From Spirochaetota bacterium (GTDB taxonomy: Bacteria; Spirochaetota; B62-G9; DRHN01), in the NCBI GenBank assembly GCA_016934265.1, contig JAFGTF010000022.1, positions 9,172-73,171 of the forward strand: a stretch of 64,000 nucleotides of DNA, given 5' to 3'. The translations under genes and the position numbers were made by a program. Of the stretch, positions 13,595 through 29,256 are shown one piece after another. The notes under the pieces are model-generated. The model saw nothing but the letters and a program-made list of their open reading frames with translations. It did not search any database and was not told where the DNA came from. The first letter of the stretch is position 1. The number at the start of each line of letters is the position of its first letter.

Positions 13595-14452
13595 CTATTT
13601 CTCCGGCTTACCTATTACATCGCCCTCTTTTTCTCTTCCGGTCAGGACGGTGAGGTATCTCTCGCCTTCAGAAAGACCTTTGTCGATTCGAACGAGATCC
13701 CCGTATGTCGGTCCGAGCGCCACTTCCCTTGCGGAAAGCTTGTTATCTTCCGTTATGGTCCACAAAAAATATTTGCCGTAGCGGCGGATTACGAGATCGC
13801 GCCGCACGAACAGCCCTTTATCCCGATCGACAGGCAGATCTATGGTGACGAACTCTCCGACATAAGTCCGCTGACTGTTGGGGAAATGGAATGTCAAAGA
13901 AAACAGCCCGGTATCGTAATCGGGCTCCTGCGAGCGGTTTGCCAGAACGCCCGTTATCCTACTGCCGCCTGAGGTACGGGCAGAAACACGCTGCCCGATC
14001 CGTACCTTGAAGGCGTCCTTGTCGCTGATGGCCGCATCCAGCACGTATCCTTCGGTTCCGATAATTACGACAGCCGGTTCGTCGCTCGACACCTCGTCCG
14101 CTTCCTGGACATCCACCCGGGAGACCCATCCTGCGATTCTCGCCGTTACCACGTTTGGTTTATATACGTTCGTGATGTCGTCTTTCCGCCTGAGAGTGAA
14201 GAGCGCCTGCCCCTCCTCTACGAACTGCCCCTCTTCCACCGATACCTTCGAAACATAGCCCGCATTCGGTGTGAAGTGTACGATTCTGTTCTTTGGCTGG
14301 AGCCTGCCGACTACTGAGATAACATGGTGCTGCTCGGACACTTCGGCGGCCGTTACCGAAGGCAGCGGACGATCCGCTCTCTGCTGGGCGGAAGCGAAAG
14401 AGCCGGAACATACTATGGCGGCGGTTATCAGCGGGAGCATGCGTTTTTGCAT
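13595..14452 (-). CDS. RND efflux periplasmic adaptor (membrane fusion protein, HlyD family)
   Basis: Signal peptide 'MQKRMLPLITAAIVCSGSFASA', then biotinyl/lipoyl-like and beta-barrel MFP motifs. It sits 1 bp upstream of the RND gene. Confidence 0.85.
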   Translation of the reverse strand: MQKRMLPLITAAIVCSGSFASAQQRADRPLPSVTAAEVSEQHHVISVVGRLQPKNRIVHFTPNAGYVSKVSVEEGQFVEEGQALFTLRRKDDITNVYKPNVVTARIAGWVSRVDVQEADEVSSDEPAVVIIGTEGYVLDAAISDKDAFKVRIGQRVSARTSGGSRITGVLANRSQEPDYDTGLFSLTFHFPNSQRTYVGEFVTIDLPVDRDKGLFVRRDLVIRRYGKYFLWTITEDNKLSAREVALGPTYGDLVRIDKGLSEGERYLTVLTGREKEGDVIGKPEK

Positions 14453-14890
14453 CCTGATGACTCCTAGATCCGTGTTGGCCCGTGCTCAGACCGGCGCGGC
14501 CGGAGCGTGTGCGTTACTGTACTCATAAGATATCGTGAGCCTATGGTCTTATTGCATAGCAAAAAATATGAAAATGAAAGCCCGTGTACAATGCTTTTTA
14601 CACAATGGGAGGTATTATTTGTGGTTCTTCTCCAATCTCGTTGCTGATATATGATTATCAACCACGCGAATTATTAATAGGACAATGGGTATAAGCTTTT
14701 TGGTATTGTTATCTCCCATTTCTGTATTTGTACTGGAAAATCACGATTTTTAAAGCTCTCTTGCCGTACAAACAGTATTCAATGTGGAAACGGGCCTTCT
14801 TTTTTACTATATGCGTTTATCCTCATCAACTAATTTGCATTAGAACCGTATTTGTTAATACACGATTTGCCTCTTCCTTTGGCGTGCAGT

Positions 14891-16210
14891 TTATTGTATC
14901 GGCCCTGTCAACTGGTCCGCACTGGTGTTGAGCGCGTATTCGAGGTCGAACAGCCCTATAAGGTAGTTGTACCGTTCCTCGAGCATGTTGATTTTAGCCT
15001 CCTGCAGCGTAGCATTCGCATCTTCCACTTCCAGAAGTGCGGCTACCCCTGTGTTGTACTGCTGTTCGGTGAGGTCATACGTCTTCTGTGCAAGCAGGAC
15101 GTTTTTTTCAAGGGCCTTCATTGTTCTCGACGATTTGTTGAGCTTCAGAACTATGGATGCGATCTCCACCTCGGCGAGCTGTCTTTTCTGGATGAGATCG
15201 AGACGCGCTTTTTCGATTTCGTCGTCTATTGTTTTCATCGTAATGTCGCTCGAGGAGCCGGGCAAAAAGCCGTCGATGGGGAAGGATATTGCGATACCGA
15301 ACGTATTGCTGTCGTACCAGGTTCCAGGGCTCCCCCAGTCGGCGCGAAACGGGTCGTTCACCCCGGCCCTGAATGTGTACGAGAGTGAGAGGGTGGGAGT
15401 GTATTCCTCGGCGCCGGTGATTTTTCTTTCAACCTGGAGGGTCTCGATCTGTTTCAGCGCGCTCTGAATATCGAGCCTTTTTTCGAGGTACTTTTTTGAA
15501 AGTTCCCCTGTTTCCAGCACGAGCATCTTCGGATCTATCGAGCCTTCGATAGAAAGCGAGGTGTTGTTGTCTACACCGAGCATCTGCTTGAAGCCCATTG
15601 CTGCGATTTCGTATTCAACCTTTGCTTCTTCGAGGTCCGGCTTGAGGTTTTCAAGTGTGACCTGTGCGCTCAGCATGGTGAGCTCTGAGACTATGCCGTT
15701 CTCATAATTAGCCCTGGCCTGGTCGTACCGTTTCTGCGCGGTTTCTATGTTCTGCTCTACGAGCTTCTTTTTTTCACTCAGTATTATGAGGTAGTAGAAA
15801 CCCTCCTTTACATACCGTTCGAGCTCCTTCCGGGCGTTTTGATAATTTATCGTTTCCGCTTCATAAAAGACCCTCGTTTGCTGCATGCTGTATATGCCGG
15901 CGGCTGAAAGAGGGAGGCTTGCACTGATGCTGGCGGAAAGGTCCCAGGGTGAGGAAGCCGATAAGGCCCTGGACCCCCCGGATCCGGTTAGGCCCGTTCC
16001 GAGAGAAACGGACGGCAAAAATACGTTCCATGAGTGCTGGGTCGCCCGCTTTTTAGTGACGAGATCGATTCTCGATACCTTGAGATCGAGGTTGTTGTTC
16101 AGGGCGAGATCTACTGCGGTGTCGATATCAAGCCTGATCTCTTCGGCGTTCAGCAGTGCCGCCGAAGCCGTCAATACGGCGATCAGCAGGAAAAAATACC
16201 CGCGTCGCAT
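14891..16210 (-). CDS. TolC-like outer membrane efflux protein
   Basis: Signal peptide, then two OEP repeats ('DIDTAVDLALNNNLDLKVSRIDL...', '...LTEQQYNTGVAALLEVEDANATLQEAKIN'). Confidence 0.85.
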   Translation of the reverse strand: MRRGYFFLLIAVLTASAALLNAEEIRLDIDTAVDLALNNNLDLKVSRIDLVTKKRATQHSWNVFLPSVSLGTGLTGSGGSRALSASSPWDLSASISASLPLSAAGIYSMQQTRVFYEAETINYQNARKELERYVKEGFYYLIILSEKKKLVEQNIETAQKRYDQARANYENGIVSELTMLSAQVTLENLKPDLEEAKVEYEIAAMGFKQMLGVDNNTSLSIEGSIDPKMLVLETGELSKKYLEKRLDIQSALKQIETLQVERKITGAEEYTPTLSLSYTFRAGVNDPFRADWGSPGTWYDSNTFGIAISFPIDGFLPGSSSDITMKTIDDEIEKARLDLIQKRQLAEVEIASIVLKLNKSSRTMKALEKNVLLAQKTYDLTEQQYNTGVAALLEVEDANATLQEAKINMLEERYNYLIGLFDLEYALNTSADQLTGPIQ

Positions 16211-16314
16211 GTTATCTCCTTACAAATGGCCGGTATCTGTTTATTAATGTAAGAGACTATCGTTCTATTTGGAAGGGAATAAAATCAGTCTGTTTTTTTG
16301 CGATCCGTTCGAGA

Positions 16315-17436
16315 TTACGCCTCGAACCGCTTTTCGAGATATGCGGAGAGCTCTTCTATCGCTTCTGGAAAGTTTTCGCGGCCGAAGCCTATCCTGACAT
16401 GGTGTGTACCGAAACCGAATATACACGAGGAGACAAGCAGTATCCCGGTTTCATCCACAAGTTGTTCACAGAATCCGCAGGTGTTTTCAACAGCCCGCAT
16501 TCTGGGAAAACAGACTGACCCGCCTTTGGGCCTGTGCCAGGAGAACAGATCATGATAATCCCGGAAGAACGAATCGAGCAGACAGAGATTTTCTTTTACA
16601 CGCAGAAGCTGTTTTTTAATGATCCTGTTCCGGTTCCGAAGCGCCGCGATCGCGAGGATCTCGCTCGGTGCGCTGCCGCAGATAGTGGTATAGTCTTTGA
16701 GCATGGCGATTTTTTCGAGTTTTTTCCGGTATCTTGTCGCGATCCAGCCGATTCTGAGGCCCGGGAGACCGAAGCTCTTCGAGAGGCCGGAGAGTGTGAA
16801 CGCCATTTCGTAACGGTCGCATGCAGGCGGCAGCATGGTATGAGGTTCGATTTCCAAATACCGGTACATTTCATCGGAGAGCAGGTAGGCCCCGTGTTGC
16901 CTGGTGATATCGATAATCGTATCGAAGTCCTGCAGGGATGGTACGTATCCCGTTGGATTATGGGGGAAGTTTATCACGACGAGTGCGGTATCCGGACGGA
17001 TTAACCGGGCGAGCGTTTCGGGGTCGAACCGCCAGCCGCGACCCTCGTCCGGCTCCCATCGCGATACCTCGCATCCCATCGATCGAGCGACCTCGTACAG
17101 AGACTGGTATCCGGGAAAGGTGCACACGACATGGTCGCCCGGTGCGAGCAGCGCGTGCATGAGAAGGAATATCCCCTCCTCCGGTACGGTAATGATGACC
17201 TCCCCGGAGGAGATCTCTTCGTATAATTCGGAAACCGAGCTGCGGAGCAGGGGGTGGCCGCAAGACTCCGTATACCCGAGCTTCAAATTCTTCCACATTC
17301 GGGACGTTTCACCGTCTGCCATAGAAACGAGCTCCTCCATCGAGAGTGACTCGCAGTCCGAGCTCGAAAGAAGGTACCGGGCGCTGAATTCATGCGCGGC
17401 GAAGTACCGCTCGATTTCGAACGGCTGAATCTCCAT
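16315..17436 (-). CDS. PLP-dependent aminotransferase, class I/II
   Basis: 'VINFPHNPTGYVP' and PLP-lysine region 'FTLSGLSKSFGLPGLRIGW'. Confidence 0.75.
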   Translation of the reverse strand: MEIQPFEIERYFAAHEFSARYLLSSSDCESLSMEELVSMADGETSRMWKNLKLGYTESCGHPLLRSSVSELYEEISSGEVIITVPEEGIFLLMHALLAPGDHVVCTFPGYQSLYEVARSMGCEVSRWEPDEGRGWRFDPETLARLIRPDTALVVINFPHNPTGYVPSLQDFDTIIDITRQHGAYLLSDEMYRYLEIEPHTMLPPACDRYEMAFTLSGLSKSFGLPGLRIGWIATRYRKKLEKIAMLKDYTTICGSAPSEILAIAALRNRNRIIKKQLLRVKENLCLLDSFFRDYHDLFSWHRPKGGSVCFPRMRAVENTCGFCEQLVDETGILLVSSCIFGFGTHHVRIGFGRENFPEAIEELSAYLEKRFEA

Positions 17437-17831
17437 CGTCTGTCTCCTTTCGTTTGAGGTAGAGGCTTTCCTACTAAGATACCGGGAACGGGAACCGGAG
17501 AACAGGGAATAAGAGGAAGCGGCGGAAGCGCGGTAGTATCATGCCGCCGTACGGCACCGGCATGATACGGAGTCGGGGTGCATCGAGAGCCGGATCGATA
17601 TAGTGTGCGTATCAACCGTAATCGATCGTTGAAAGCCGGGCGAGGCGGATCGGTATTGCTGCATTTCGGACGAATAATCTTGTATCGGCGCACATATGTC
17701 CAAAAAAACAACGGTCTAATTCCGACCGGTACGTGGAAAAATTGACATAGGTGGTGTGCATACTCCGGAAAAAGCGGTATTTTGAGATACATAGCGAGCA
17801 AAGCACTGATCTGAAAGAAGGTTTTAAACGA

Positions 17832-19310
17832 ATGAATATATTACTTGTGTACCCGAAATACCCGAACACATTCTGGAGCTTCACGCACATACTGAAGTTC
17901 ATCTCAAAAAAGGCGGCTTTTCCGCCCCTCGGGCTTTTAACCGTGGCATCGATGCTGCCCGGAGAGTGGGAGAAGAGACTCGTGGACGTGAATGTCGAGA
18001 ATCTCGAAGATGGGGATATCGCCTGGGCCGATATGGTCTTTATCAGCGCCATGGTGGTACAGGAAGAAGACGCACAAAAAATCATCGACCGGTGCAGAGC
18101 GCAGGGGAAAACGGTCGTTGCAGGAGGGCCCGCTTTCACGATAAACCAGAAAAAATTTTCTGGTGTGGACCATTTCGTCCTCAATGAAGCGGAGGTCACC
18201 CTTCCCCGCTTTCTGAAAGACCTCGAAGACAAACACCCCAAACCGGTCTACAAATCAACCAAAAGGCCCGATATCACAAAAACTCCCGTTCCCCTCTGGT
18301 CGTTGATAAATTTCAGGGATTACGTGACTATGAACGTACAGTTTTCCAGGGGCTGCCCTTTCAACTGTGAATTCTGCGACATCCCGTTAATGAACGGCAG
18401 TAATCCGAGGACCAAGACGCCGGGTCAGATGATAAAAGAGATACAGTCGTTGTATGACGCGGGGTGGAGAGGGTCCATATTTATTGTTGACGACAACTTT
18501 ATCGGCAACAAAGTAAAGGTAAAAGTACTGCTTCATCATCTCGTAGAATGGCAAAAGGCGCACAAATACGCCTACAAGCTGCTTACAGAGGCAAGCACAA
18601 ACCTGGCTGAAGACGATGAGCTCATGAAGCTCATGAGCGCGGCGAACTTCCACAAGGTGTTTCTCGGGATCGAGACGCCGAATCTCGAGAGCCTCGAAGA
18701 GTGCAGCAAGCATCAGAATACGAGGAAGGACCTCGCAGAATCGGTGAGGACCATACATCGAAACGGGATGCAGGTAATGGGGGGATTTATAGTCGGGTTT
18801 GACAGTGACAAAGAGAGCATATTCGAGACACAGATCCAGTTCATCCAGAAGATCGGCGTGGTTACCGCCATGGTGGGGATACTCAACGCACTGCCGCAGA
18901 CAAGGCTCTACAAGAGGCTGAAGGCTGAGGGAAGGCTGCTCAGCGACTTCACGGGTGAGAATACGGACGGAACTCTGAACTTCATTCCTCGAATGGGGAA
19001 GAAGAAGCTCGTCGAGGGGTATAAAAAACTTATATCGACGATCTATGCGCCGGATCAGTACTATAAGAGAATTGATACATTTTTACGGCATTACAGGCCC
19101 ACCGTAAAAGGGTCGATCGCACTGACAGACATCGCTGCGTTCATACGTAGTATGTGGAGCATAGGAGTCCTCTCGAAAGCCCGTTTCCACTACTGGAAAT
19201 TGCTCGTAAAAACGTTTTTTACCAATAACAGCGCGTTTCCGATTGCAGTAGAGCTCGCTATCGCGGGGCTGCACTTTGACCGGGTCACAAGCGGGATTGT
19301 CTGTGTGTAG
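17832..19310 (+). CDS. B12-binding domain radical SAM protein with C-terminal DUF4070
   Basis: N-terminal B12-binding Rossmann ('MNILLVYPKYPNTFW...PPLGLLTVASML'), radical-SAM 'CPFNCEFC', C-terminal DUF4070-like region. ATG at 17832. Confidence 0.8.
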   Translation: MNILLVYPKYPNTFWSFTHILKFISKKAAFPPLGLLTVASMLPGEWEKRLVDVNVENLEDGDIAWADMVFISAMVVQEEDAQKIIDRCRAQGKTVVAGGPAFTINQKKFSGVDHFVLNEAEVTLPRFLKDLEDKHPKPVYKSTKRPDITKTPVPLWSLINFRDYVTMNVQFSRGCPFNCEFCDIPLMNGSNPRTKTPGQMIKEIQSLYDAGWRGSIFIVDDNFIGNKVKVKVLLHHLVEWQKAHKYAYKLLTEASTNLAEDDELMKLMSAANFHKVFLGIETPNLESLEECSKHQNTRKDLAESVRTIHRNGMQVMGGFIVGFDSDKESIFETQIQFIQKIGVVTAMVGILNALPQTRLYKRLKAEGRLLSDFTGENTDGTLNFIPRMGKKKLVEGYKKLISTIYAPDQYYKRIDTFLRHYRPTVKGSIALTDIAAFIRSMWSIGVLSKARFHYWKLLVKTFFTNNSAFPIAVELAIAGLHFDRVTSGIVCV

Positions 19311-19349
19311 GGTATACGATGTATCGGGCTTCGGTGAAAAAACGGCGAA

Positions 19350-20108
19350 TCAGAACATCGAGGTCAATTCTCTCAAACTCGTTATTATACGGGCCCTGTC
19401 TCTAAAGCCGTCGCCTGCCGGGTTCGGGCCGGGGCCTGTATCGATACTGTAATCCAGGGCGCGGTGATCCGTACCGTTTCTTTCTCTCATGATTACTACC
19501 GGCTTCATGGAAGCGGCAAGGGCGCCGGTAACGTCTTCCTCCGTGTCCCCGACATACGCCACTTCTCTGCCGTTGAGACCTGTTCCCTTGAGCGCTTTGG
19601 AAAATATCGCAGGATCCGGTTTCCTGTATCCGACCTCTGCAGAGACGATGACATTTTTGAACAGGTTGCCGAGCCCATATTCGGAGAGAATCCTGTACAC
19701 ATGGGGAGGGTGGTCGAAATTGCTTATCAGGCACAGGACTTTTCGCGGCTTTAGTGAACGGAGCACAGGGGCTGCTTCCTCGTCTATGCTGACATGCTTC
19801 TGCCAGGCGCACACGACTGTGTCCGCCATGACGCCGATATGCGCCGGTTTCAACTCGACGCCCAGCTCGATACCGAGCGTTTTGATCCGGCGCTCGAAAA
19901 CGGTGAGTCCGTCCTGAAAAGATACGGGTTCCTCCTTACCGAAAAACCGGTCGCAGCGTCGGGAAAATGCATCTATGGAAATGGAAAGGCCTTGTTTTTG
20001 CATGCAGTCATAGAATGTTTCGAGCCAGTCGATCCATGCGGCCTGCATATCTCCGTAGACGAGTAGGGTGCCGTAAAGGTCGAAAAAAATTCCCCGAATG
20101 CTCATCAC
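19350..20108 (-). CDS. HAD superfamily hydrolase (subfamily IA)
   Basis: Motif I 'GIFFDLYGTLL', motif II 'CLISN', motif III/IV 'KPDPAIF...VGDTEEDVTGA'. Confidence 0.7.
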   Translation of the reverse strand: MMSIRGIFFDLYGTLLVYGDMQAAWIDWLETFYDCMQKQGLSISIDAFSRRCDRFFGKEEPVSFQDGLTVFERRIKTLGIELGVELKPAHIGVMADTVVCAWQKHVSIDEEAAPVLRSLKPRKVLCLISNFDHPPHVYRILSEYGLGNLFKNVIVSAEVGYRKPDPAIFSKALKGTGLNGREVAYVGDTEEDVTGALAASMKPVVIMRERNGTDHRALDYSIDTGPGPNPAGDGFRDRARIITSLRELTSMF

Positions 20109-20231
20109 TACCCCCTCTTTTTACTACATGAGCGGGCATTCTTCGTTTATCCGCTTGATTTTTTGATGCGATAGGAACCTGTTATTATTAAAAGTATAAA
20201 AAGTATACGCTTTCCCCTGAAGACCATGCTC

Positions 20232-21116
20232 TCAGCGGCCGCACAGTTCCCTGAAATTGCAGTTTCTGCATATTTCTGTGTTGTCCGTCATAACAAAAAA
20301 CTTTTTCTCTTTTGGATTATTTTCCTCCACGTCAGCGCAGTATTCGTACATTTCGGCTGTCTCGCGTTTTATCGAGGTAAAAAACGCCTGAATGTCGTGA
20401 TCGTCGAACTCGTACTCCTTCTCCTCGTATTCGGGTTTGAGATACGCGATAATCGGGTTTATTTTTTCAGGTTCGATATTGAAATGATATGAAGCCCAGG
20501 AGGTATATCCAAGAAGTTGTTTTTTGTATTTTTCTTCATGCGGCTTGCCGGTCTTCCAGTCGATGATGTAGGTCCGCTTCTCAACCGGAAAAAGAAAGTC
20601 CACCTTAAAGTAAGCCTTCAGACCGTTTATCCTCGATTCGCCGTATCCGGGCGGATCCAGAATCCAATCCTTCTTCGTCGCTATAGCGCTGCCCCTCAAC
20701 CAGGTCATTCGGTCGCTGTTCAGGAAATTGGCAAGACAGAGCGTCACATCGGCCTCTATCCCGGAAATATCTGTTTGGGGAACGTCTTTATAATATACCT
20801 CTCTGAAGACGTTGGTTTTACAGTACCTCTTTAGATTTCTGATGGTATACTCAAAGAACTTTTTCCTGTTGATCGCCCCTTCATCCTTCAGGAGTCTTCC
20901 GATAAGGGTTTTGATCACCTCATGGGTGATTTCCCCCACCGCCAAAGGGACAGAAACCATCGCTTTGAGGGAATTGATCCTTTCAACGGGGTATTGGTTG
21001 TCGTGTTTTGCATAATACGTGTAGTAGTACCGGCGTTTGCAGATCTGAAACAGGTCATACCTTGAAATGGACCACCCGAGTATGGGGGTATACTCGAACT
21101 TTTTTATCCGGTACAT
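20232..21116 (-). CDS. Cas4-like PD-(D/E)XK nuclease with a C-x2-C-x5-C iron-sulfur motif, in a low-GC islet
   Basis: RecB-nuclease motif 'YIIDWKTGK', 'EYE', C-terminal 'CRNCNFRELC'. Local GC is roughly 40-45 %, against ~60 % in the flanks. Confidence 0.7.
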   Translation of the reverse strand: MYRIKKFEYTPILGWSISRYDLFQICKRRYYYTYYAKHDNQYPVERINSLKAMVSVPLAVGEITHEVIKTLIGRLLKDEGAINRKKFFEYTIRNLKRYCKTNVFREVYYKDVPQTDISGIEADVTLCLANFLNSDRMTWLRGSAIATKKDWILDPPGYGESRINGLKAYFKVDFLFPVEKRTYIIDWKTGKPHEEKYKKQLLGYTSWASYHFNIEPEKINPIIAYLKPEYEEKEYEFDDHDIQAFFTSIKRETAEMYEYCADVEENNPKEKKFFVMTDNTEICRNCNFRELCGR

Positions 21117-21359
21117 GGCAATGATCCATTATGACATGAATTCGAAGCGATGTCTTCTTTTTTCCGGCTGATGTCGCGCGATGTATACGGGAGTGCATAC
21201 TTTGTCTTTATCGTGAAAAATATTACATGTCAACGCCCGGCATCGTAGACCCCCAGACTGCGGTGGATTTTACAGAAAATAAATGATAGAATAGAAACAA
21301 TAATCGAACCGGTGTATCGAGAAAGACCGGTTTCATGGAAGCGCTCGAGGAGCGGGATC

Positions 21360-24300
21360 ATGAAATTAAAATTAAGCCAAAAAATATTGGTACTGTACAT
21401 TGCGACCAGTATCGTGATACTGGGAGCAATTTGGATCTTGCTTTCATCAATCCTGAGAAGAGACACGTTCGAGACGTTGCATACGGAGTTTCAGAACCAG
21501 CTCATGCATATCGATTACGCGTTGACTACCTTATTAGAGAATGTCGAACAGGATCTAGAAACGATCTCCCGAAACGAGGCCGTACGCTCGAGAGACGATG
21601 AGGATTTCACCTTCTTCCTCGATGCGGATGAGAGCACTTTTCACTATGAATACGGGGACCTCGAGAAGCGGATAATAACGATTTTCAACAGTTACAGAAC
21701 CACGCATCCGTATGTGAATTCCGTCTATATGGGTCGGGAGAACGGAAGCTTCGTTCGTTCGCATCCGCGTGCGAGGCCGACCGAGTACGATCCAAGAACG
21801 CGTCCGTGGTACGTCATCGGAAAGGAAAGCCATGGAAGGGCCGTGAGAACGCCGCCGTTCCGATCGGTAACCACACCGGACGTAACCGTAGACTATGTGA
21901 AAGCGCTCATTGATTCCGAAGGACAGTGTTACGGTGTCATCGGGATCGGTATCACTCTCAATGAGTTAACCGAATACCTGTCGAACTTCAACCCCGGTTA
22001 CGGCGGCAGGATGTTTCTGGTGGATGAAAAGGGCACGATACTCGTAAATCGGGGCGCCTTTGAGCGGTTTACCCATATCAAGACGTATAATGAACGGCTA
22101 TACCACGACCTCATGGAGAGGAATGAGGGGTATTCCCTGTTCGAGGAGAATTCGGTGCTTTCGTATGCATTCTTTTATACCTCCCCGGCTCTCGGCTGGA
22201 AGATAGCGGCCGTCATTCCTAAAAAGAATATCGAAAGAGCGGATAATGCGGCGGTGTTCAGAGTCTCCCTTGTCTTGTTTTTGGCTCTCGGTCTGCTCAG
22301 CGGCCTCACGCTTTTCGGGGTCGACCGTTTTATCATAAAGCCTATTACACGGCTCGACGAAGGCGCGGACCTCATTACGCGCTCCGGCAATCTCGATCAC
22401 CGTATCATGCTCGATACCGGCGATGAGATAGGACATCTGGCACGGACCTTCAATGGAATGATCGTCTCGATTAAAAAGGCGGAAAAAGAGCTTAAAAAAC
22501 ACCGTGATCATCTCGAGGAGCTCGTTCAGGAGAGGACCAGCGAGCTGAGCAAGTTGACCCAGGCCGTCGAACAGAGTCCCATATCGGTCATGATAACGGA
22601 TAGAGAGGGGAAAATAGAGTATTTCAATCCGCAGTTCATCGCTGAAAGCGGATATTCATCCTCGGATATTATCGGAAAAAGCCCCGAGCTCTTCGTGTCG
22701 GACGAATACGAGAGGTCCTTTTTCGACGAAGTGTGGGATACAACATCCAAAGGCGCTATATGGAGAGGAGAGGTTCTGAACCGGAGGAAGAACAACGAGG
22801 TATACTGGGCGAGCATGTCGGTATCGCCGATCTACAGCGATGATGAAGAGATCACTCATTTCGTCGCCACATACGAAAACATCACGGAGCGAAAGAGGGC
22901 GCAAAAAGAGCTCATCCTCCACGACAGGTTCATGGAAGGAACGGCGGAGGCGGTGACAGAGCTGATCGTGAACAGGGATGTGGGAACCGCAATGCAGAAT
23001 GCAATCAGGATATTCGGCGAAAAGATCGACGTGGACCGGTCGTATATTTATAAGAACCATACAACCGGCGACGGAAGACACGCGATGAGCCAGATATTCC
23101 AGTGGAGTTCCGATTCCGACACCCAGATTATCGACAACCCCGAGCAGCGGAATATTCCGTATGACGGTACCTTTACACGCTGGTACGATACGTTTTCCAA
23201 TCGGGAGCTCATCTCCGGTAGAATAGGCGAATTCCCGAATACGGAACGGGAGGCGCTTGAATCGAGAAGGGTGGAGTCGATGATCGCAGCGCCGATCTTC
23301 GTACGGGACAGTTTATGGGGATTTACCGGTTTCGACAACCTGAAGGAGTCCACAGGCTGGTCGGAAAGCGAGAAGACGATCTTTCTTGCATTCGCCAATA
23401 CTCTCGGTAAGGCGATTACGGGCGCACAGGACGGGATCGAGCTTAAGAAAGCGAAAAAGGCCGCCGAGAAGGCCAATCAGGCCAAGAGCGAGTTTCTCGC
23501 AAACATGAGCCACGAGATACGGACACCGATGAACGCCATCATGGGAATGACCCACCTCGCGCTGCAGACGGAGCTGACGTCGAAGCAGCGGGACTATCTT
23601 TCGAAGATCGATCTTTCGGCGCGTTCTCTTCTCGGGCTTATCAACGACATACTCGATTTTTCCAAGATAGAAGCGGGGAAGATCGAGATCGAGTCGGTGG
23701 ACTTTTATCTCGACGACGTCCTGGACAACCTGACAAGTCTCGTCGAGATGAGAATCGATAAAAAGGATCTCGAGTTCCTCTTCGATATACAGCCCGACGT
23801 TCCCCTGTCCCTCGTCGGCGATCCCCTGCGGCTCGGCCAGGTCCTTTTAAACCTCGCAAGCAACGCAATCAAGTTCACCGAGCGCGGAGAGATTGTGGTT
23901 AAGGTAGCGCTTGTTGAAAAAACGGAAAAAACGGCGACATTGAAATTCTCGGTCAGCGATACAGGCATAGGGCTGAAAGAGGAACAGATGACGATGCTTT
24001 TCAAGCCTTTTTCTCAGGCAGACGGGTCAATCACACGAAAGTACGGGGGCACCGGCCTCGGGCTGACGATATCAAAGCGCCTCGTTCGGATGTTCGACGG
24101 AGAGATAGGGGTCGAAAGCGAATACGGGAAGGGGAGCACGTTTTTCTTTACCGCAAAGTTCGGGCTTCATACAAAGAAGAAACGGCGCAGCGTTCTTTCC
24201 AGGGAGCTTGAGGGTATAAAGGCTCTCGTCGTCGACGATAACAAGACATCTCTGTATGTTTTGAAAGGAACGCTCGAGTCGTTCGGACTCGACGTTTCCC

Positions 24301-25715
24301 TCGCGGAATCCGGTGAAGAAGCGCTCGATGTCATGAGAAACATGCCCCACGAAGAGCCGTTCGATCTTGTGCTCATGGACTGGAATATGCCCGGCATGAA
24401 CGGCGTCGAGGCGTCCATGCTCATCAAACAGGACAGGGGGATTTTTAAAGTTCCCACCATTATCATGGTTACCGCATACGGTCGAGAAGAGGTGCTGCAA
24501 CAGGCGGAAGAAGCGAAGCTCGATCTCTTTTTAACCAAACCGGTAAGCCGGTCTGCGCTTTTCAACCTTATTATGGGGCTGCTCGGCAAAGGGGCTCCTG
24601 AGGCGGTGAGGTCGGTTATTAAAAAGGAGGGTTATATCGAGGCGGTACGGCGGATCAGGGGTGCGAGGATCCTCCTCGCGGAGGACAACGAGATCAATCA
24701 GCAGGTGGCGAAAGAGCTTCTTCAGGGAGTGGGGCTCGAGGTGGCTATCGCACAAAACGGGAACGAGGCGGTCGAGAAAGCGCTGAGCGGCTCGTACGAC
24801 GCGGTGTTGATGGATATCCAGATGCCGGAGATGGACGGGCTCGAGGCAACAAAAAGAATACGATCGAGCGGGAAAAAAGGCGCGGATACGGTACCCATTA
24901 TCGCCATGACCGCCCACGCGATTGAGCAGGACCGTGAAAAGAGCCTCGAGGCGGGAATGAACGATCATATAACGAAACCGATAGATCCGACCGAGTTCTT
25001 CTCTACGCTCGTTCGATGGATTTCTCCCCGGATGATCCGAACAGAAACCTCACCGAAAGAAAAAAAAGCCGCCCCCAAAGAGGAAAACGCGCCGTTTCCC
25101 GTCACCCTGACGGGAATAGACGATCATAAAGGCCTCGCACGGGTCGGGGGCAACGCCGTCGTGTACAAAGACCTCCTTTTGAAGTTTAAAAGGGATTTTT
25201 CCGAAAGCGGACGCAGCATCGAGAATGCAATCGAAGAGGAGGACCTACATACCGCCCGATATTTGGCGCATACGATAAAGGGTGTCGCGGGCAATATCGG
25301 GGCCGAAGGGCTGTATCGTGCCGCATCGACGCTGGATGACGCGCTCAGAGAAAAAAGAGTTGAAAATGGGGACAGAGTGATCGAAAATTATAAGAAAGAA
25401 CTCGATATGGTGGTGCGGTCGATTACTCTTCTCGAATCGACGGGTGACGGGAAGCATCGAGAAGATACGGAATCTAGAGGGAGTGGGAGCCCGAAGATTC
25501 TTCTTGCGATTTTATTGCGACTCGAGCTGCATATCAGAAAAAGCCAGCCGAAAGGGTGCGTGCCGCTCATCGAGGAGATAGAAGCGTTTTTGTGGCCGGA
25601 AGAGTACGTGAAAGATCTACGAAAGCTGGTACGGTATGTTAAAGGGTATAAGTTCGGGGAGGCGCTGGGTGTACTGGAATCGATGAAAGGCAGGCTGGAG
25701 AGGGGGGGCGGATAA
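21360..25715 (+). CDS. hybrid sensor histidine kinase / response regulator (double Cache - HAMP - PAS - GAF - HisKA - HATPase - REC - REC - HPt), 1451 aa
   Basis: TM '[20 protein letters not shown]'; a periplasmic Cache-like region; HAMP; PAS ('[21 protein letters not shown]'); H-box '[17 protein letters not shown]'; G-boxes 'SDTGIGL...[11 protein letters not shown]'; two REC domains ('[12 protein letters not shown]', '[12 protein letters not shown]'); an HPt domain ('[15 protein letters not shown]'). ATG at 21360 with a GAGGAG RBS. Confidence 0.9.
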
Positions 25716-25720
25716 CGGGT

Positions 25721-26821
25721 ATGAAAAAAAAGGCGTCGGTCCTTGTAGTGGATGACAATGAGACCAATATCGACATACTCATGGGAATCCTGGGCGACGA
25801 GTACGAGGTGAGCGTCGCGCTCGACGGAGAACGGGCGCTCGAAGTCGCCGGGGAACAACCGCCTGATATCGTCCTGCTCGACGTCATGATGCCCGGCATG
25901 GACGGCTATGATGTGTGCAGGAGGCTGCAGGAGAAAGAATCCACAAGAAAAATACCGGTGATCTTCGTCACCTCCAGGGGCGAGGTCGAAGACGAGGCAA
26001 TGGGGTTCGAGGCCGGAGGAGTGGACTATATCACCAAGCCGGTGAGCCCGTCTATCGTTCGCGCACGGGTACGAACACATCTCAATCTGAAACGGTACTC
26101 CCAGGAGCTCGAGCATCAGAACGAGGTCTTGAGGGAGAATGCAAGGCTCCAGGAGGAGATCGAGCAGATAAACCGCCACGATTTGAAGAACCCGCTTTCC
26201 GCCATGATATCCATTCCCAGAATGATTATCGAGAGGAACGGGGTAACCGAACGGCAGAAAGACCTCCTGCTGTTGATCGAGGAGGCGGGCTACAGAATGC
26301 TCGATTTGATAAACCGATCTCTCGACATTATAAAGATGGAGCGGGGCATATATCATATAGATCCCGTCCCGGTGAATATGGTGGAGGTGTTCGAGAAGAT
26401 ACTTAGGGAGATCAAGCCGATCACCGACGGCAAGCACATACCGGTCACGCTGTTTCTGCGGGACAAGCCGGTATCAGGCGGCGAATCGTTCCGCATCACC
26501 GGAGAAGAGTTTCTCTTCTATTCCCTGTTTGTGAATCTTTTGAAAAACGCGGTGGAGGCGTCGCCCGACGGTAGGCCCGTAAAGGTATTTTTCGAAGGGG
26601 TGAAACGTCCCGTCGTCAGGGTTACAAACGACGGTGCTATCGCGGAAGAAATTCGAGGGCGTTTTTTCGACAAGTTCTGTACCTACGGCAAGAAAGGCGG
26701 CACCGGTCTCGGCACGTATATCGCGCGGCTGATAACCGAGACCCTCAGCGGCAAAATCGGCTTCGAGACCTCAGAAGAGACGGGTACGACTCTTACGGTA
26801 ACGTTTCCTCCATCCCTCTAA
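25721..26821 (+). CDS. response-regulator receiver fused to a histidine kinase (REC-HisKA-HATPase)
   Basis: REC 'VLVVDDNETNIDIL...VLLDVMMPGMDG'; H-box-like 'RHDLKNPLSAMIS'; ATPase 'GGTGLGTYIARL'. Confidence 0.85.
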   Translation: MKKKASVLVVDDNETNIDILMGILGDEYEVSVALDGERALEVAGEQPPDIVLLDVMMPGMDGYDVCRRLQEKESTRKIPVIFVTSRGEVEDEAMGFEAGGVDYITKPVSPSIVRARVRTHLNLKRYSQELEHQNEVLRENARLQEEIEQINRHDLKNPLSAMISIPRMIIERNGVTERQKDLLLLIEEAGYRMLDLINRSLDIIKMERGIYHIDPVPVNMVEVFEKILREIKPITDGKHIPVTLFLRDKPVSGGESFRITGEEFLFYSLFVNLLKNAVEASPDGRPVKVFFEGVKRPVVRVTNDGAIAEEIRGRFFDKFCTYGKKGGTGLGTYIARLITETLSGKIGFETSEETGTTLTVTFPPSL

Positions 26822-26858
26822 ATTCAGGCAGCGCCGGGATACGAGGTTGTTTCCATAT

Positions 26859-27713
26859 TTAGTATCGTTTCGAGCCATGGCCGTTTTCTGTTTCGCCCAG
26901 CGTCCCTTTTGTACCGATCAGCACAAAAGCGGCTGCAATCCAGGCCAGCCCTGCGGATAACACGGCATCGGAAAAGCTCTCCTTTATTGACATCGACTGA
27001 GCTGAAAGTACGATCGCGCTGAAGGTGATGCTGTAATGGAACAGAAAAATCAGCGGCATGCTCCCCTTCGTCCTGTTATAGACCCACGTCATCAGAATGG
27101 AATACGGCATGAGGAGCAAAGGCCCCACGAGAATAAAATAGGGGATGAATATAATGCCGTAATGGCCTGCCCCGATGTAGTCAGTGGGCAGGTGCCACAT
27201 TCCCCAGAGAAACCCCACGAGCAGTGAAGCGGAAACAGGGCCGAACCGGGATTGCGCTTCGGGCAGGGCCGTTTGGCGCCAGCCGAACTCCTCGCCGAGG
27301 CTTGCGAAGACAGGCCACATGAGCCCGAGGGCGAGGCGGCCCGAAACGCCGTCCAGAGAAAGCGATTTTCCCGCCGCCGCAAAGATCACAAACCGCAGCA
27401 AGTGGAGGCAGGGAACGAGAAGCAGTGAGATGACGTACCAGACGGCTTTGAAGCGCCATAGTATCAGCGAGGAAAGAAGCCGCCCGGCCCCGCCTTTTCC
27501 ATTTATAATGCGAGCACAGATCATGCCGGCCACACTCGGTCCGAAGCCCCCGAGGACGGCAAGCACTAGAAACGAAGGCGAAGGGCCTCCCTCCATAAAA
27601 GACCCCGGTTTGGAAGTTATCACAAGATACGCCCATAAGACCCATGAGATCGCAAACGCGAGCAGGATGTATAATCCGAGGAGGTTTTTCGCTGTCATAT
27701 CATTACGTCCCAT
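26859..27713 (-). CDS. CPBP family intramembrane metalloprotease (CAAX protease/Abi-like)
   Basis: Polytopic membrane protein with 'EEFGWRQ' and 'FLWGMWHLP' CPBP motifs. Confidence 0.7.
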   Translation of the reverse strand: MGRNDMTAKNLLGLYILLAFAISWVLWAYLVITSKPGSFMEGGPSPSFLVLAVLGGFGPSVAGMICARIINGKGGAGRLLSSLILWRFKAVWYVISLLLVPCLHLLRFVIFAAAGKSLSLDGVSGRLALGLMWPVFASLGEEFGWRQTALPEAQSRFGPVSASLLVGFLWGMWHLPTDYIGAGHYGIIFIPYFILVGPLLLMPYSILMTWVYNRTKGSMPLIFLFHYSITFSAIVLSAQSMSIKESFSDAVLSAGLAWIAAAFVLIGTKGTLGETENGHGSKRY

Positions 27714-27940
27714 GAAAGACCCCCTGTCAGGAGATAGTATTTATCGATACGAAATTATAGTGGCGACCGCGGTAAAACACAAGGGTGAAAATCGGGCGGG
27801 GCAGGATCGATCTTATTGTTCTTGAATATGGACCCGGTTCCTGTTTACTTTGATATTATAAAAGTTTTAAAAAGTGTACGTATGTCCCGTTTATGTGGAA
27901 ATTTGTTGCTTTTTATTTCTCCGCCCCCTACCATTTTGCC

Positions 27941-28327
27941 ATGATGCGTCCGGTGATGATAGCCCTCATCCTCTTCATGTTCGCAGGCGTGTTTCCCCTT
28001 GCGGCTGAAGAGACGGCGTACGACGTGCTCGTGACGGAACCGGATAGGGAGGAATCCGCATTAGCACAGGTTATACGGTTCTACCGGGAGCGCATCTCGT
28101 CACACGACGGAGCGAGGTGCCTCTACTACCCGACCTGTTCCGACTTCTATAGGCAGGCGGCGGCACGGTACGGGTTCTTTTGGGGAACGGTTATGATCGT
28201 CGACCGGATGGTATACAGGGAAGACCCTGCATCCATGAGCCGGTACGAGTACCTGGAAGAGCGGGGAAGCTTCAGCGACCCGGTATACCACAACTACATC
28301 TTCGCACCGTCCGATTACTACGAATGA
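27941..28327 (+). CDS. YidD-like haemolytic-domain protein with an N-terminal signal/TM segment
   Basis: 'VIRFYRERISSHDGARCLYYPTCSDFYRQAAARYG' matches the YidD 'CRFxPTCSxY' core. Start at the MM at 27941. Confidence 0.55.
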   Translation: MMRPVMIALILFMFAGVFPLAAEETAYDVLVTEPDREESALAQVIRFYRERISSHDGARCLYYPTCSDFYRQAAARYGFFWGTVMIVDRMVYREDPASMSRYEYLEERGSFSDPVYHNYIFAPSDYYE

Positions 28328-29256
28328 AAAAGAAGCTCATCATTATAGTATTCATCGCGTTCGCCTCATGCGTATGGCAGGCGGTCGCCCAGGAGGCGAG
28401 CGCGCAGATCAACGACGATGATGATCTCGGGTACGGGATTTACCTCTTCGAGCGCGGCAGGTACGGACTCTCGATACTCGAGCTCGAGCGGTATATATAC
28501 CGTCACCCGCAGGACCGCCATACGCCGCACGCCGGGCTTCTGCTCGCGCTCTCCTACGCGAACGAGTCGAAGTACGACGAGGCGCTCTCACTCCTCGGCG
28601 AGCTCGAGCGGGCGGTTTCAGGAAGCCCGTGGGAGGAGCGCTATTCCGGTATCCTGTGCGAGACGGGGTTTCACCGGCTGAGTCTTCTGTTTCGGCTGAA
28701 AAAACCCTTAGAGTTCGACCTGGAGAAGGAGCGCGTCGCGACGATATGCAGGGAGCCCGATGAACACCTGGGTCGCTATACGGACGCGATGACCGTGGCA
28801 CTCGAGATCTACGATATGCAGTGGCAGCAGGCACTGCGCGAGCTTCAAAACTCTCGCTACCTTTCAGAAGGTCTCACCGAAAAGATTGCGGCGGAGCTCG
28901 AGGAGGCGTTAAAACAGCGGGATAAAAGCCCTGTTCTCGGCGGCATATTTTCCATCGTTCCCGGGATGGGGCACCTGTATGCGGGCAGGGCGTGGGACGG
29001 ATTCAAGAGTCTTTTAGTCAACGCGACCTTCATCACGCTGTCCGTGGTGTGCTTCACGAACGACCTGCCGGTTGCCGGCGGGATATTTACCGGGGTCGAG
29101 GGGGTCCTCTATATCGTGAATATCTACGGCGGCGTGAACGCCGTGCTGCAGGAGAACGCCCGGCAGGCGGTGATTCGGCGCGACCGTATGCTCAAGCTTT
29201 TGCCTGCACCGCCTTTGAAGATCATATCGATTACCGAGGAGTTCGAGATCAGATGA
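28324..29256 (+). CDS. secreted/membrane-anchored TPR-like protein, hypothetical
   Basis: ATG at 28324 overlaps the upstream stop (ATGA). Signal peptide 'MKKKLIIIVFIAFASCVWQAVA', helical repeat region, two C-terminal hydrophobic segments. Confidence 0.5.
   Translation: MKKKLIIIVFIAFASCVWQAVAQEASAQINDDDDLGYGIYLFERGRYGLSILELERYIYRHPQDRHTPHAGLLLALSYANESKYDEALSLLGELERAVSGSPWEERYSGILCETGFHRLSLLFRLKKPLEFDLEKERVATICREPDEHLGRYTDAMTVALEIYDMQWQQALRELQNSRYLSEGLTEKIAAELEEALKQRDKSPVLGGIFSIVPGMGHLYAGRAWDGFKSLLVNATFITLSVVCFTNDLPVAGGIFTGVEGVLYIVNIYGGVNAVLQENARQAVIRRDRMLKLLPAPPLKIISITEEFEIR

Follow-up and report, generated by a model that had tools for sequence, protein, structure and literature searches.

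The most AT-rich 1.2 kb of a 64-kb stretch of DNA from an uncultured Spirochaetota bacterium (the window, by which we mean the whole stretch analyzed) carries one gene, and we conclude that this gene probably encodes a native, vertically inherited, and independently transcribed iron–sulfur nuclease of the PD-(D/E)XK type that would cut the ends or flaps of single-stranded DNA (ssDNA) and may serve genome maintenance rather than defense. A sequence-only reading had suggested that the same locus may be a horizontally acquired islet with an orphan Cas4-like nuclease. The dip itself is real: positions 20110-21330 have a GC content of 44.3%, the minimum of the window and ∼3.4 SD below its mean, and only 0.16% of sliding windows across the 64 kb are as AT rich. 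However, the surroundings, which had been put at ∼60% GC, measured 51–52% in the flanking 2-kb bins and 55.5% over the whole window, so that the contrast is 7–11 points instead of 15–20. The 294-aa nuclease is the sole product encoded in the dip, and no cas1/cas2, helicase, or integrase gene adjoins it, both as the reading had stated (Table 1).

Table 1. Coordinates of the nuclease gene, its predicted motifs, and the flanking noncoding segments (positions in the 64-kb window)
Feature	Position	Strand	Remarks
Spacer, nuclease stop codon to HAD hydrolase start codon	20109..20231	.	39% GC; adds to the dip
Nuclease CDS	20232..21116	-	294-aa stand-alone PD-(D/E)XK (PF12705) iron–sulfur nuclease (predicted); ACE1-like clade, Cas4/AddB-nuclease superfamily
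C-terminal cysteine cluster C283-x2-C286-x5-C292 (CRNCNFRELC)	20241..20270	-	Three cysteines invariant
Q200-L-L-G-Y204, QhxxY motif of RecB-type nucleases	20505..20519	-	Q200, G203, and Y204 invariant
Motif III D186-W-K188 (D-x-K of IDWKTGK)	20553..20561	-	Invariant
Codon of D173, predicted motif II catalytic aspartate	20598..20600	-	Invariant within KVDFLFP; corresponds to the first D of the ACE1 D-DxK triad (PMC12094033)
Motif I G61-E-I-T-H65	20922..20936	-	G61 and H65 invariant
Codon of C26, N-terminal cysteine of the predicted 4Fe-4S ligands	21039..21041	-	Invariant in 36 sequences
Divergent intergenic region, nuclease/hybrid histidine kinase	21117..21311	.	42% GC; adds to the dip
Sigma-70-type promoter (predicted)	21128..21156	-	-35 AAGACA, 17-nt spacer, extended -10 TGtCATAAT; consensus scan

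The protein matched the Pfam profile PF12705 (PDDEXK_1) at 49.7 bits, well above the gathering cutoff of 22, with residues 15-292 covering profile positions 2-246 of 247. This profile search, which the sequence-only reading had proposed, and the invariant motifs bear out its assignment of a single-domain RecB/Cas4-type PD-(D/E)XK nuclease with a C-terminal cysteine cluster. We judged invariance on a 36-sequence alignment spanning several phyla, in which G61/H65, D173, D186-W-K188, Q200/Y204, and four cysteines do not vary. IDWKTGK had been correctly named as motif III, and the cluster CRNCNFRELC contains only invariant cysteines. In contrast, EYE, also listed as a nuclease motif, is not canonical and belongs to a family-specific invariant P228-x-Y230-x-E232. 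With C26 at the N terminus and C283, C286, and C292 at the C terminus, the protein has the 1+3 cysteine set of the iron staple nucleases (Cas4, AddB, AdnA, Dna2, Exo5, and ACE). The AF2 model (pLDDT 94.9) has ACE1 as its closest structure, at 15–17% identity, and it is predicted to share the ACE1 fold, a PD-(D/E)XK core with extra helices and an Fe4S4 cluster. A single-sequence search of PDB sequences with the nuclease gave no match; the family profile was required.

The family to which this nuclease belongs is compact. Its members have ∼290 aa, essentially all of them are single-domain proteins, and profile scores run from 430 to 180 bits before a gap. They occur in at least 12 bacterial phyla and retain ∼50% identity across phyla; the delta proteobacterium NaphS2 is one carrier (locus L076). 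The distribution is patchy (at least 515 of ∼185,000 GTDB species representatives), and a core repair function would seldom be spread in this way. Our literature search turned up no publication devoted to the family.

The GC deficit is a family-wide by-product of amino acid composition and no sign of foreign origin. GC is low because the protein uses much Lys, Tyr, Asn, Ile, and Glu but little Gly or Ala, and AT-rich spacers on both sides add to the dip. Amino acid composition explains ∼7 of the ∼11 missing GC points, and a regional GC3 trend common to the neighboring genes explains ∼3. GC1, GC2, and GC3 of the nuclease gene are 0.434, 0.329, and 0.597, respectively, compared with a GC3 of 0.63–0.64 in its neighbors. 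With the codon usage of the host, the amino acids of the nuclease predict a GC content of 0.495, which is the minimum among 31 genes (mean 0.565). After correction for amino acids, the residual is −0.041, compared with −0.027 to −0.033 for the adjacent genes. GC and codon usage, which the reading had suggested as a check, therefore do not mark the gene as foreign: its GC3 is near that of its neighbors, and its residual lies close to their value of about −0.03. The same pattern holds in 80 homologous loci from hosts of 25–66% GC. There, the GC3 of the nuclease gene follows that of its neighbors, with r = 0.94 and a mean difference of +0.008. At codon positions 1 and 2, its GC averages 0.069 below theirs, and in 72 of the 80 loci the gene as a whole has more AT than the flanking sequence.

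In relatives at 92%, 76%, and 69% identity, the nuclease gene lies between a yidD cluster and an aminotransferase/OEP cluster, and its immediate flanking genes differ among the three. Every contig spanning the site carries the gene (six at 92%, one at 76%, and two at 69% identity), and none has an empty site, the presence data coming mostly from searches seeded with the nuclease itself. The absence from close relatives that had been proposed as a check was thus not seen in any of these contigs. An unbiased search, anchored on the radical-SAM gene, returned 80 metagenome loci, none with any other window gene, which suggests that this gene, rather than the nuclease, is the movable piece. With the aminotransferase as anchor, we recovered an 83% relative whose contig stops short of the site and a 66% relative that is nonsyntenic. 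Amino acid identity of the nuclease was 92.2% in one comparison (88–96% for its neighbors) and 68.7% in another (65–67%), with dN/dS values of 0.147 and 0.078, respectively, both within the neighbors’ range. A neighbor-joining tree of 80 members largely mirrors taxonomy, with clades for Chloroflexota, Acidobacteriota, Elusimicrobiota, Desulfobacterales, Desulfatiglandales, CPR, WOR-3, and Spirochaetota, and the window nuclease falls in the last of these. Because its position is kept, its divergence is in step with that of its neighbors, and the tree largely follows taxonomy, we regard the gene as native. As far as the data allow, it is a conserved gene of its lineage, the outcome that the reading had itself set against its islet.

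A recently acquired low-GC islet, holding an orphan nuclease left over from a CRISPR adaptation module or from a larger defense island, is consequently very improbable. Such an origin would fit the lowest GC of the window, a single gene without partners, and Cas4-like motifs. However, the deficit lies at codon positions 1 and 2, recurs in the homologous loci, and is accompanied there by a GC3 ameliorated to each host; the site is kept in relatives down to 69% identity though the neighbors change, and dN/dS stays at 0.08–0.15. Marks of mobility are missing as well: we found no flanking repeats beyond chance level near the nuclease, no tRNA in the 64 kb, no Rfam match, and no integrase or cas domain among the window’s annotated ORFs. 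Cas4 models failed, and family members are ∼290-aa stand-alone proteins everywhere, with nothing lost from a larger module, which also disposes of the orphan or remnant status. Equally hard to credit is descent from a phage or plasmid recombination exonuclease that was later domesticated, or from an antidefense nuclease like the Cas4-like protein of Campylobacter phages. Phage PD-(D/E)XK and RecB-family exonucleases do have the same fold (Foldseek TM ∼0.6), and there are weak PHROG matches (E = 3e-6), but identity to viral proteins is only 12–16%. The search for phage homologs that the reading had called for gave no tblastn match in 50,697 phage records and at most 26% identity in IMG/VR; the best match in plasmid collections has only 24.5% identity. 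No prophage genes lie near the locus, and inheritance is vertical. An antidefense or phage origin is thus left without support.

The nuclease gene is probably transcribed independently, from its own predicted promoter. The predicted −10 element ends 11 nt upstream of the ATG, and the transcript leader would be very short. In the relatives L001, L006, and L007, the promoter block is conserved with the same spacing to the ATG, and L009 has TACAAT. No conserved palindrome indicating an SOS-type or other operator was evident in a five-sequence upstream alignment, and nothing resembling a minus-strand terminator lies in the spacer downstream of the gene.

An AddB-like/AddA-like helicase–nuclease pair lies at 29726-36033, 8.6 kb from the nuclease, and in the Spirochaetota lineage the nuclease is found near yidD-addB-addA. 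No conserved partner gene was found among the 142 nearest neighbors at 71 loci (Pfam and PADLOC scans), and when ∼970 ORFs from 96 loci were clustered all against all, no family was shared by more than 11 of 80 groups. The neighbor families that do recur either reflect lineage-specific housekeeping synteny or have kinase and ABC domains of a generic kind. An alkyltransferase-like (MGMT-domain) gene adjoins the nuclease in four loci, all from Acidobacteriota, and Smr and UvrD genes lie near it in one Elusimicrobiota locus; each of these repair-gene associations is limited to one lineage, which counts against the maintenance case.

The invariant motifs and cysteines, the AF2 model, and the known activity of ACE1 make an active ssDNA nuclease with end threading the likeliest identity of the protein. 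Judged from fold and motifs, C26, C283, C286, and C292 would ligate a 4Fe-4S cluster and thereby staple the N-terminal part of the protein to its C-terminal part, and D173, D186, and K188, aided by H65 and Q200/Y204, would coordinate Mg2+ or Mn2+ at a buried site. ssDNA may thread into this site from a free end, as in ACE1, AdnA, and Dna2, and the substrate would then be ssDNA tails or flaps, with intact duplex spared. Fe-S binding, substrate, and polarity are read here from a predicted fold at 15–17% identity to ACE1, and the buried channel is drawn by analogy. In the cell, the enzyme could complement the AddAB-type machine encoded 8.6 kb away, working independently of a helicase. We somewhat favor ssDNA end or flap processing in genome maintenance over a dedicated role in antiphage defense, because the nuclease has no conserved partner, diverges like an ordinary gene, lies near yidD-addB-addA, and has repair genes beside some of its homologs.

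It is less likely, in our judgment, that the protein is instead a single-gene innate defense nuclease of the solo-Cas4 type, or an ACE-like partner acting in trans with an Argonaute from another part of the genome, that degrades invading ssDNA or DNA ends or generates or trims guide DNAs. The closest structure, ACE1, is a defense accessory, and the best PADLOC matches are two pAgo-associated Aga_Cas4-like_Nuc models (53–57 bits; E = 8e-16 and 1e-14). These scores are no better than the 49.7 bits of the generic PF12705 profile, however, and model PDLC02406 gives 95 bits to a Bacillus relative (WP_236805783.1) and 53 to the window nuclease. On the side of defense, 19 of 58 ACE1 and 92 of 115 ACE2 proteins come from genomes without pAgo (PMC12094033), and a solo-Cas4 mutant of Synechococcus has lowered plasmid immunity (as cited in PMC12094033). 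In one family member, a Swt1-like HEPN domain, typical of conflict systems, is fused to the N terminus; AbiEii and transposase genes neighbor the nuclease at locus L012, and the nearest-neighbor scan returned two restriction enzymes, AbiEi, and WYL. The patchy phyletic spread also fits a defense gene.

Such defense-type matches are nevertheless a small minority of the neighbors. The 64-kb window contains no pAgo, cas, or other defense gene, pAgo and Piwi were missing from the commonest families of the 142 nearest neighbors, and Cas1 and Cas2 were missing from the 25 commonest. The stable locus, the neighbor-like divergence, and a tree ordered by taxonomy also speak against defense, ∼50% identity across phyla is atypical of fast-turnover defense genes, and no close relatives were found in phage, plasmid, or viral collections.

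The gene in the window is therefore best described as one copy of a widespread, tightly conserved, stand-alone relative of the Argonaute-associated ACE1 in an Argonaute-free neighborhood. This copy adds only membership to the family, and the finding is modest. Going further, we tentatively propose, as a possibility, that the ∼290-aa family is an unrecognized, vertically inherited maintenance nuclease, a bacterial counterpart of eukaryotic Exo5, MGME1, or the nuclease module of Dna2, and that ACE1 and ACE2 are offshoots of it recruited by Argonaute systems, not its ancestors. If true, the family would be a helicase-independent, Fe-S–stapled nuclease that threads and trims ssDNA ends or flaps in phyla with many uncultured lineages (Spirochaetota, Elusimicrobiota, CPR, WOR-3, Chloroflexota, Acidobacteriota, and Desulfobacterota). 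Work on a single member would tell whether nucleases of the ACE type stem from a housekeeping ssDNA-end nuclease and would also fill a gap in the DNA metabolism of many uncultured phyla. The locus also illustrates how a strong GC dip that arises purely from amino acid composition and AT-rich intergenic spacers can lead to a false island call, and how codon-position GC across homologous loci distinguishes such composition effects from real horizontal transfer.

Among known systems, CRISPR-associated Cas4 was rejected as an identity for the protein: TIGR00372 gave 10.3 bits against a cutoff of 65, PF01930 had no match at E ≤ 1, and the PADLOC Cas4 models reached at most 16 bits. The window nuclease is ∼90 aa longer than CRISPR Cas4 (PDB 4IC1 and 8D3L) and has an extra helical region, and neither cas1 nor cas2 among the window’s annotated ORFs nor a CRISPR array among repeats near the gene was found. 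In AddB, AdnA, and Dna2, the nuclease domain is joined to a helicase motor or has one as its partner, whereas the window nuclease is a lone domain; it is not a recent paralog of the nuclease domain of the window’s own AddB, to which BLASTP found no significant similarity. The eukaryotic enzymes Exo5 and MGME1, which are likewise stand-alone, count among the closest known systems.

Solo-Cas4 proteins (Hudaiberdiev et al. 2017, PMC5704561) resemble the nuclease in their genetics. They lie outside CRISPR loci, are inherited mainly vertically, and evolve under ordinary purifying selection, and we found all three of these properties in the window nuclease. Solo-Cas4 is enriched in CPR and Chloroflexi, and a role in defense or repair has been proposed for it (PMC5704561). 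However, Solo-Cas4 proteins belong to COG1468/PF01930 and have ∼200 aa, and the window nuclease matches PF12705 and not PF01930. The 2017 survey treated PF12705 proteins as a separate “Cas4-like” group of phage-encoded or helicase-linked forms only, and the stand-alone bacterial family described here is absent from its discussion (PMC5704561). The Solo-Cas4 of M. mazei is oligomeric and prefers supercoiled dsDNA (PMC12501428), a preference that would be unexpected for a channel-type enzyme such as we propose.

ACE1 is an end-requiring ssDNA endonuclease with a D-DxK site inside a 10–13 Å channel (PMC12094033, 2025). Like the window nuclease, it is a single domain of similar size (278 vs. 294 aa) without a helicase domain, with nearly equal spacing of the D-DxK triad and with one N-terminal and three C-terminal cysteines. 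The two share only 15–17% identity, and the family profile covers only the C-terminal half of the ACE1 sequences, including 9IAC (E = 8e-5). The APACE1 systems to which ACE1 belongs pair it with a long-A pAgo and are confined to Cyanobacteriota, whereas the nuclease here is from Spirochaetota and its family spans at least 12 phyla. With this identity, the partial profile match, and PADLOC Aga_Cas4-like scores that are alike for two different models and close to the generic Pfam score, we rejected membership in the ACE1 clade proper. ACE2-type and related stand-alone PF12705 nucleases of ∼300–320 aa, which mostly occur without pAgo (PMC12094033), are in contrast homologous to the family from end to end. 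The Bacillus cereus megaplasmid protein WP_236805783.1, for example, aligned with the family at an hhalign probability of 99.6% and 26% identity and shares its N-terminal WS-SR...C-R-Y-Y-YY segment, the DWKTG motif, and the C-x2-C-N-x-x-E-x-C tail. These proteins are longer through insertions and score at most 147 bits against the family profile, and they form a sister group to the family of the window nuclease.

At 44.3% GC, the stretch at 20110–21330 is the minimum among all 1.2-kb stretches of the 64 kb; the window as a whole has 55.5%. The stretch lies ~3.4 sd under the mean, and only 0.16% of sliding windows are equally low. A sequence-only reading had picked out this ~1.2-kb dip and the single gene in it, and both observations stand; its value of ~60% GC for the surroundings was overstated, the 2-kb flanking bins lying at 51–52%. 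We checked GC and codon usage, as that reading had proposed. Comparing the codon positions of the nuclease (GC1 0.434, GC2 0.329, and GC3 0.597) with the adjacent genes (GC3 0.63–0.64) and the window means (0.59, 0.40, and 0.69, respectively) placed the deficit at the amino-acid-specifying positions, with GC3 near that of the neighbors. Lys (9.9% vs. 5.5%) and Tyr (8.2% vs. 3.5%) are overrepresented in the protein, as are Asn, Ile, and Glu; Gly (4.1% vs. 8.3%) is underrepresented, together with Ala, Leu, and Val. With host codon usage, the predicted GC of the gene is 49.5%, the lowest among 31 genes (mean 56.5%, minimum 52.7%). The gene's actual GC of 45.3% leaves a residual of −4.1 points, and the genes on either side have residuals of −2.7 to −3.3 points, a regional GC3 trend being common to all; the two spacers bordering the nuclease have 39% and 42% GC. 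After correction for composition, genes at ~13.6–27.7 kb (13595–27713) fall 2–3 points below expectation, and most genes beyond 38 kb (38819–62582) lie 1–4 points above it; the nuclease and its neighbors share the regional GC3 shift of the former. The second-lowest 1.2-kb stretch in the window (14501–15701, 46.9%) overlaps the gap between the RND membrane-fusion and OEP genes and the start of the latter.

We then compared 80 homologous loci from hosts ranging from 25% to 66% GC. Gene GC follows flank GC (r = 0.95), and gene GC3 follows neighbor GC3 (r = 0.94, mean difference +0.008). Positions 1+2 are lower by 0.069 on average, and the nuclease gene exceeds its flanks in AT content at 72 of the 80 loci. 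The window copy (−0.072 overall and −0.055 at GC3 relative to its flanks) lies in the lower part of this distribution but within it. Because the same pattern recurs over these loci, the dip is a property of the protein family, each copy having codon usage adapted to its host. Part of the value of the finding is this methodological lesson.

Features of the window around the nuclease gene
Feature	Coordinates	Strand	Remark
RND membrane-fusion gene	13595–14452		
OEP gene	14891–16210		
B12-binding radical-SAM/DUF4070 gene	17751–19310	+	Two genes from nuclease
HAD hydrolase	19350–20108	-	Neighbor of nuclease
Nuclease	20232..21116	-	Sole convincing gene in dip, 294 aa
Promoter-like element	21128–21156	-	-35 AAGACA, 17 nt, extended -10 TGtCATAAT, 11 nt from ATG
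Hybrid histidine kinase	21312–25715	+	1467 aa; neighbor of nuclease
Rce1-like gene	26859–27713		Missing in L001, a relative's locus
yidD	27893–28327	+	Start of co-directional cluster 27893–36033
Two genes without Pfam match	Between yidD and AddB-like gene	+	Same cluster
AddB-like protein	29726–32866	+	C-terminal PDDEXK_1
AddA-like UvrD-type helicase	32818–36033	+	

The sequence-only reading had suggested that the region may be a horizontally acquired islet and proposed checking close relatives for its absence. The nuclease is present at its site in relatives with 92%, 76%, and 69% identity. Six contigs, each from a different sample, represent the 92% level, and on them the window order of kinase, nuclease, HAD, radical-SAM, aminotransferase, OEP, and RND pump genes is unchanged; at 76% (locus L189), yidD, nuclease, and HAD remain and both kinase genes are missing; at 69%, including a Spirochaetota metagenome-assembled genome (MAG), the nuclease lies between yidD and the aminotransferase/OEP genes, and its immediate neighbors are all different. 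The nuclease is thus the constant element and its neighbors the variable ones, the reverse of an islet. It diverges at the pace of its surroundings, with 92.2% identity to the 92% relative (neighbors 88–96%; dN/dS 0.147, neighbors 0.09–0.38) and 68.7% to the 69% relative (neighbors 65–67%; dN/dS 0.078). In a neighbor-joining tree of 80 members, clades correspond, with few exceptions, to Chloroflexota, Acidobacteriota, Elusimicrobiota, Desulfobacterales, Desulfatiglandales, Patescibacteria, WOR-3, and Spirochaetota, and the window copy falls within the last. Two exceptions, L019 (JAGVIO010000213.1, an "archaeon" MAG) inside WOR-3 and L036 (Dadabacteria) inside Anaerolineae, result from rare transfer or from misbinning. 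An NCBI "Spirochaetes bacterium" MAG encodes a protein 100% identical to the neighboring aminotransferase.

Marks of mobility were lacking. Repeats flanking the nuclease did not exceed chance level, the 64 kb held no tRNA and no Rfam match, and the window contained no integrase, cas, or Argonaute gene; its remaining genes are ordinary chromosomal ones (for class II ribonucleotide reductase, arginine biosynthesis, MurG, and the AddB/AddA-like pair). The suggested search for phage homologs found no family member in 50,697 phage records; the best plasmid match is a Bacillus protein (24.5% identical), and the best IMG/VR matches are ≤26% identical. Relatives were located mainly by nuclease-based search, which biases the comparison toward presence, and two unbiased anchor searches yielded no further informative contigs; no empty site was seen among relatives, of which the databases hold few close ones. 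As far as these data go, the reading as a horizontally acquired, orphan, or remnant gene is refuted by its proposer's own criterion, conservation in the lineage.

Between yidD and the nuclease lies a variable slot (window 21312–27713; L007 2710–8117; L189). L189 has nothing there; the window and L001 have a hybrid histidine kinase and a response-regulator kinase. In L007/L008 the slot is filled by pP_pnuc_1 (PF18165, a predicted pPIWI-associated nuclease), an 805-aa SMC_N/AAA ATPase, DUF1330, and an isochorismatase; of these, pP_pnuc_1 and the ATPase look like a defense-type pair. Since yidD directly adjoins the nuclease divergently in L189, the ancestral order may have been the nuclease back-to-back with a yidD-addB-addA recombination-repair cluster. 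The radical-SAM/DUF4070 gene has metagenome relatives of up to 82% identity (L106–L185) whose loci share no other window gene, and it is missing from the site in a 69% Spirochaetota relative; together with the HAD hydrolase, it looks likelier to be movable cargo than the nuclease does.

The protein matches Pfam PF12705 (PDDEXK_1) over its full length (49.7 bits vs. a cut-off of 22), in agreement with the earlier assignment to the RecB/Cas4-type superfamily. The best PADLOC matches, two models of Cas4-like nucleases associated with prokaryotic Argonautes (pAgo; 53–57 bits), are not superior to this generic model. An alignment of 36 sequences (mean column identity 58%) has invariant residues that include C26, G61/H65, D173, D186-W-K188 (within the previously noted IDWKTGK), Q200/Y204, and C283, C286, and C292 (the CRNCNFRELC cluster, C283-x2-C286-x5-C292). 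The reported "EYE" is not a canonical nuclease motif; it belongs to a family-specific invariant P228-x-Y230-x-E232. The invariant residues comprise the complete set expected for an active nuclease of the RecB/Cas4 type with an iron-sulfur "staple" of 1+3 cysteines. Confidence in the AlphaFold2 model is high (pLDDT 94.9, pTM 0.89), and an ACE1/AdnA/Dna2-type fold is predicted with high confidence. Below ACE1, an Argonaute-associated nuclease, the ranked structure matches were Dna2 (14.3), AdnA (14.2), the putative exonuclease 3L0A (13.1), MGME1 (12.0), RecE and AddA (11.2), type I-C Cas4 (10.9), SSO0001 (10.3), and Exo5 (9.9). Foldseek agreed, and viral proteins were no closer (TM ~0.6, 12–16% identity).

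The nuclease is probably transcribed independently with a very short leader, since its own promoter-like element ends 11 nt before the ATG and is conserved at that distance in relatives down to 67–69% protein identity. No Shine-Dalgarno-like sequence is evident, which, with the closeness of the conserved -10, suggests a leaderless or nearly leaderless mRNA.

The family is broad. In a large protein database it has 973 relatives, of which the top matches are full-length, ~290 aa, and ~50% identical across phyla, and at least 515 GTDB species representatives carry a member. Full-length scores in a library clustered at 50% identity extend from 433 down to ~180 bits, after which comes a step to a sister group of 300- to 320-aa proteins at ≤147 bits. 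One sister-group nuclease (L103; Bacillus cereus plasmid NZ_AP022879.1, 6001–8058; 316 aa, alignable over its whole length at 26% identity with an hhalign probability of 99.6%) adjoins a HIRAN-domain protein on a 234-kb megaplasmid, with a site-specific integrase ~5.6 kb upstream and no annotated Argonaute in the 13-kb stretch. We found no paper on this nuclease family; the window copy is an unremarkable member of a family that is uncharacterized yet already catalogued, and flagging this conserved, ACE1-like stand-alone family is a further part of the finding's value.

As to cellular role, we favor genome maintenance, to which we give about an even chance, because the gene evolves like an ordinary one at a stable locus, is absent from mobile elements, and has no defense-island context. 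It is intact, under purifying selection, and retains all catalytic and cluster-ligand residues. The termini would be joined through a 4Fe-4S cluster held by the four cysteines, and D173, D186, and K188 would coordinate Mg2+ or Mn2+. Single-stranded DNA would thread from a free end to the buried site, so that tails and flaps would be trimmed and duplex DNA spared. A defense function, solo or Argonaute-linked, is possible, unsupported, and in our estimate rather unlikely. Swt1-like HEPN domains are typical of conflict systems, and one such domain (PF18731, E 8e-34) is fused N-terminally to the family nuclease in P0122 (454 aa), the sole domain fusion among the 150 best representatives. When the 142 nearest neighbors in 71 loci were scanned with Pfam and PADLOC, defense-type matches were scattered (two restriction enzymes, one AbiEi, one WYL, one Cas3c-like, and a few AAA ATPases), and neither Piwi/pAgo nor Cas1/Cas2 appeared in the most frequent families.

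Clustering ~970 ORFs from 96 loci revealed no conserved partner, no ORF family occurring in more than 11 of 80 groups. Recurring neighbors are generic kinase/ABC domains or lineage-specific housekeeping synteny: formate-tetrahydrofolate ligase and lipoproteins in the WOR-3-like lineage, an FAD-linked oxidase in Acidobacteriota, and a PHO4-type transporter in Desulfatiglandales. Hints of DNA repair are as thin as those of defense, each limited to a single lineage: an alkyltransferase-like gene adjoining the nuclease in four Acidobacteriota loci, Smr and UvrD genes near it in one Elusimicrobiota locus, and the nearby co-directional yidD-x-x-addB-addA cluster in Spirochaetota. The alkyltransferase-like gene (L084 6919–7308; L093 5848–6246; probably also L044 and L052) is convergent with the nuclease and encodes an MGMT DNA-binding domain with PWQRV replacing the active-site PCHRV, a DNA-damage-sensing function.

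Among known systems, the nuclease is a PF12705 member and, in the broad sense, a Cas4-family iron-staple nuclease. It is not a CRISPR Cas4, because both the curated models (TIGR00372, 10.3 bits vs. a cut-off of 65; PF01930, no match) and the genomic context fail. Nor is it ACE1 in the defined sense, since no pAgo lies in the window, the protein is not cyanobacterial, and identity is 15–17%. ACE1 partners with a long-A Argonaute in cyanobacteria, and many ACE1 and most ACE2 proteins are found in genomes without pAgo (PMC12094033). The nuclease behaves as described for solo-Cas4 genes, which are inherited vertically, evolve under ordinary selection, and are enriched in CPR and Chloroflexi (PMC5704561); unlike them, it belongs to the PF12705 branch, of which that study covers only forms encoded by phages or linked to helicases. 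ACE1 is an end-requiring ssDNA endonuclease whose D-DxK site sits in a 10–13 Å channel too narrow for duplex DNA (PMC12094033), and by analogy, we predict that the nuclease works most like ACE1 and the nuclease modules of AdnA, AddB, and Dna2.
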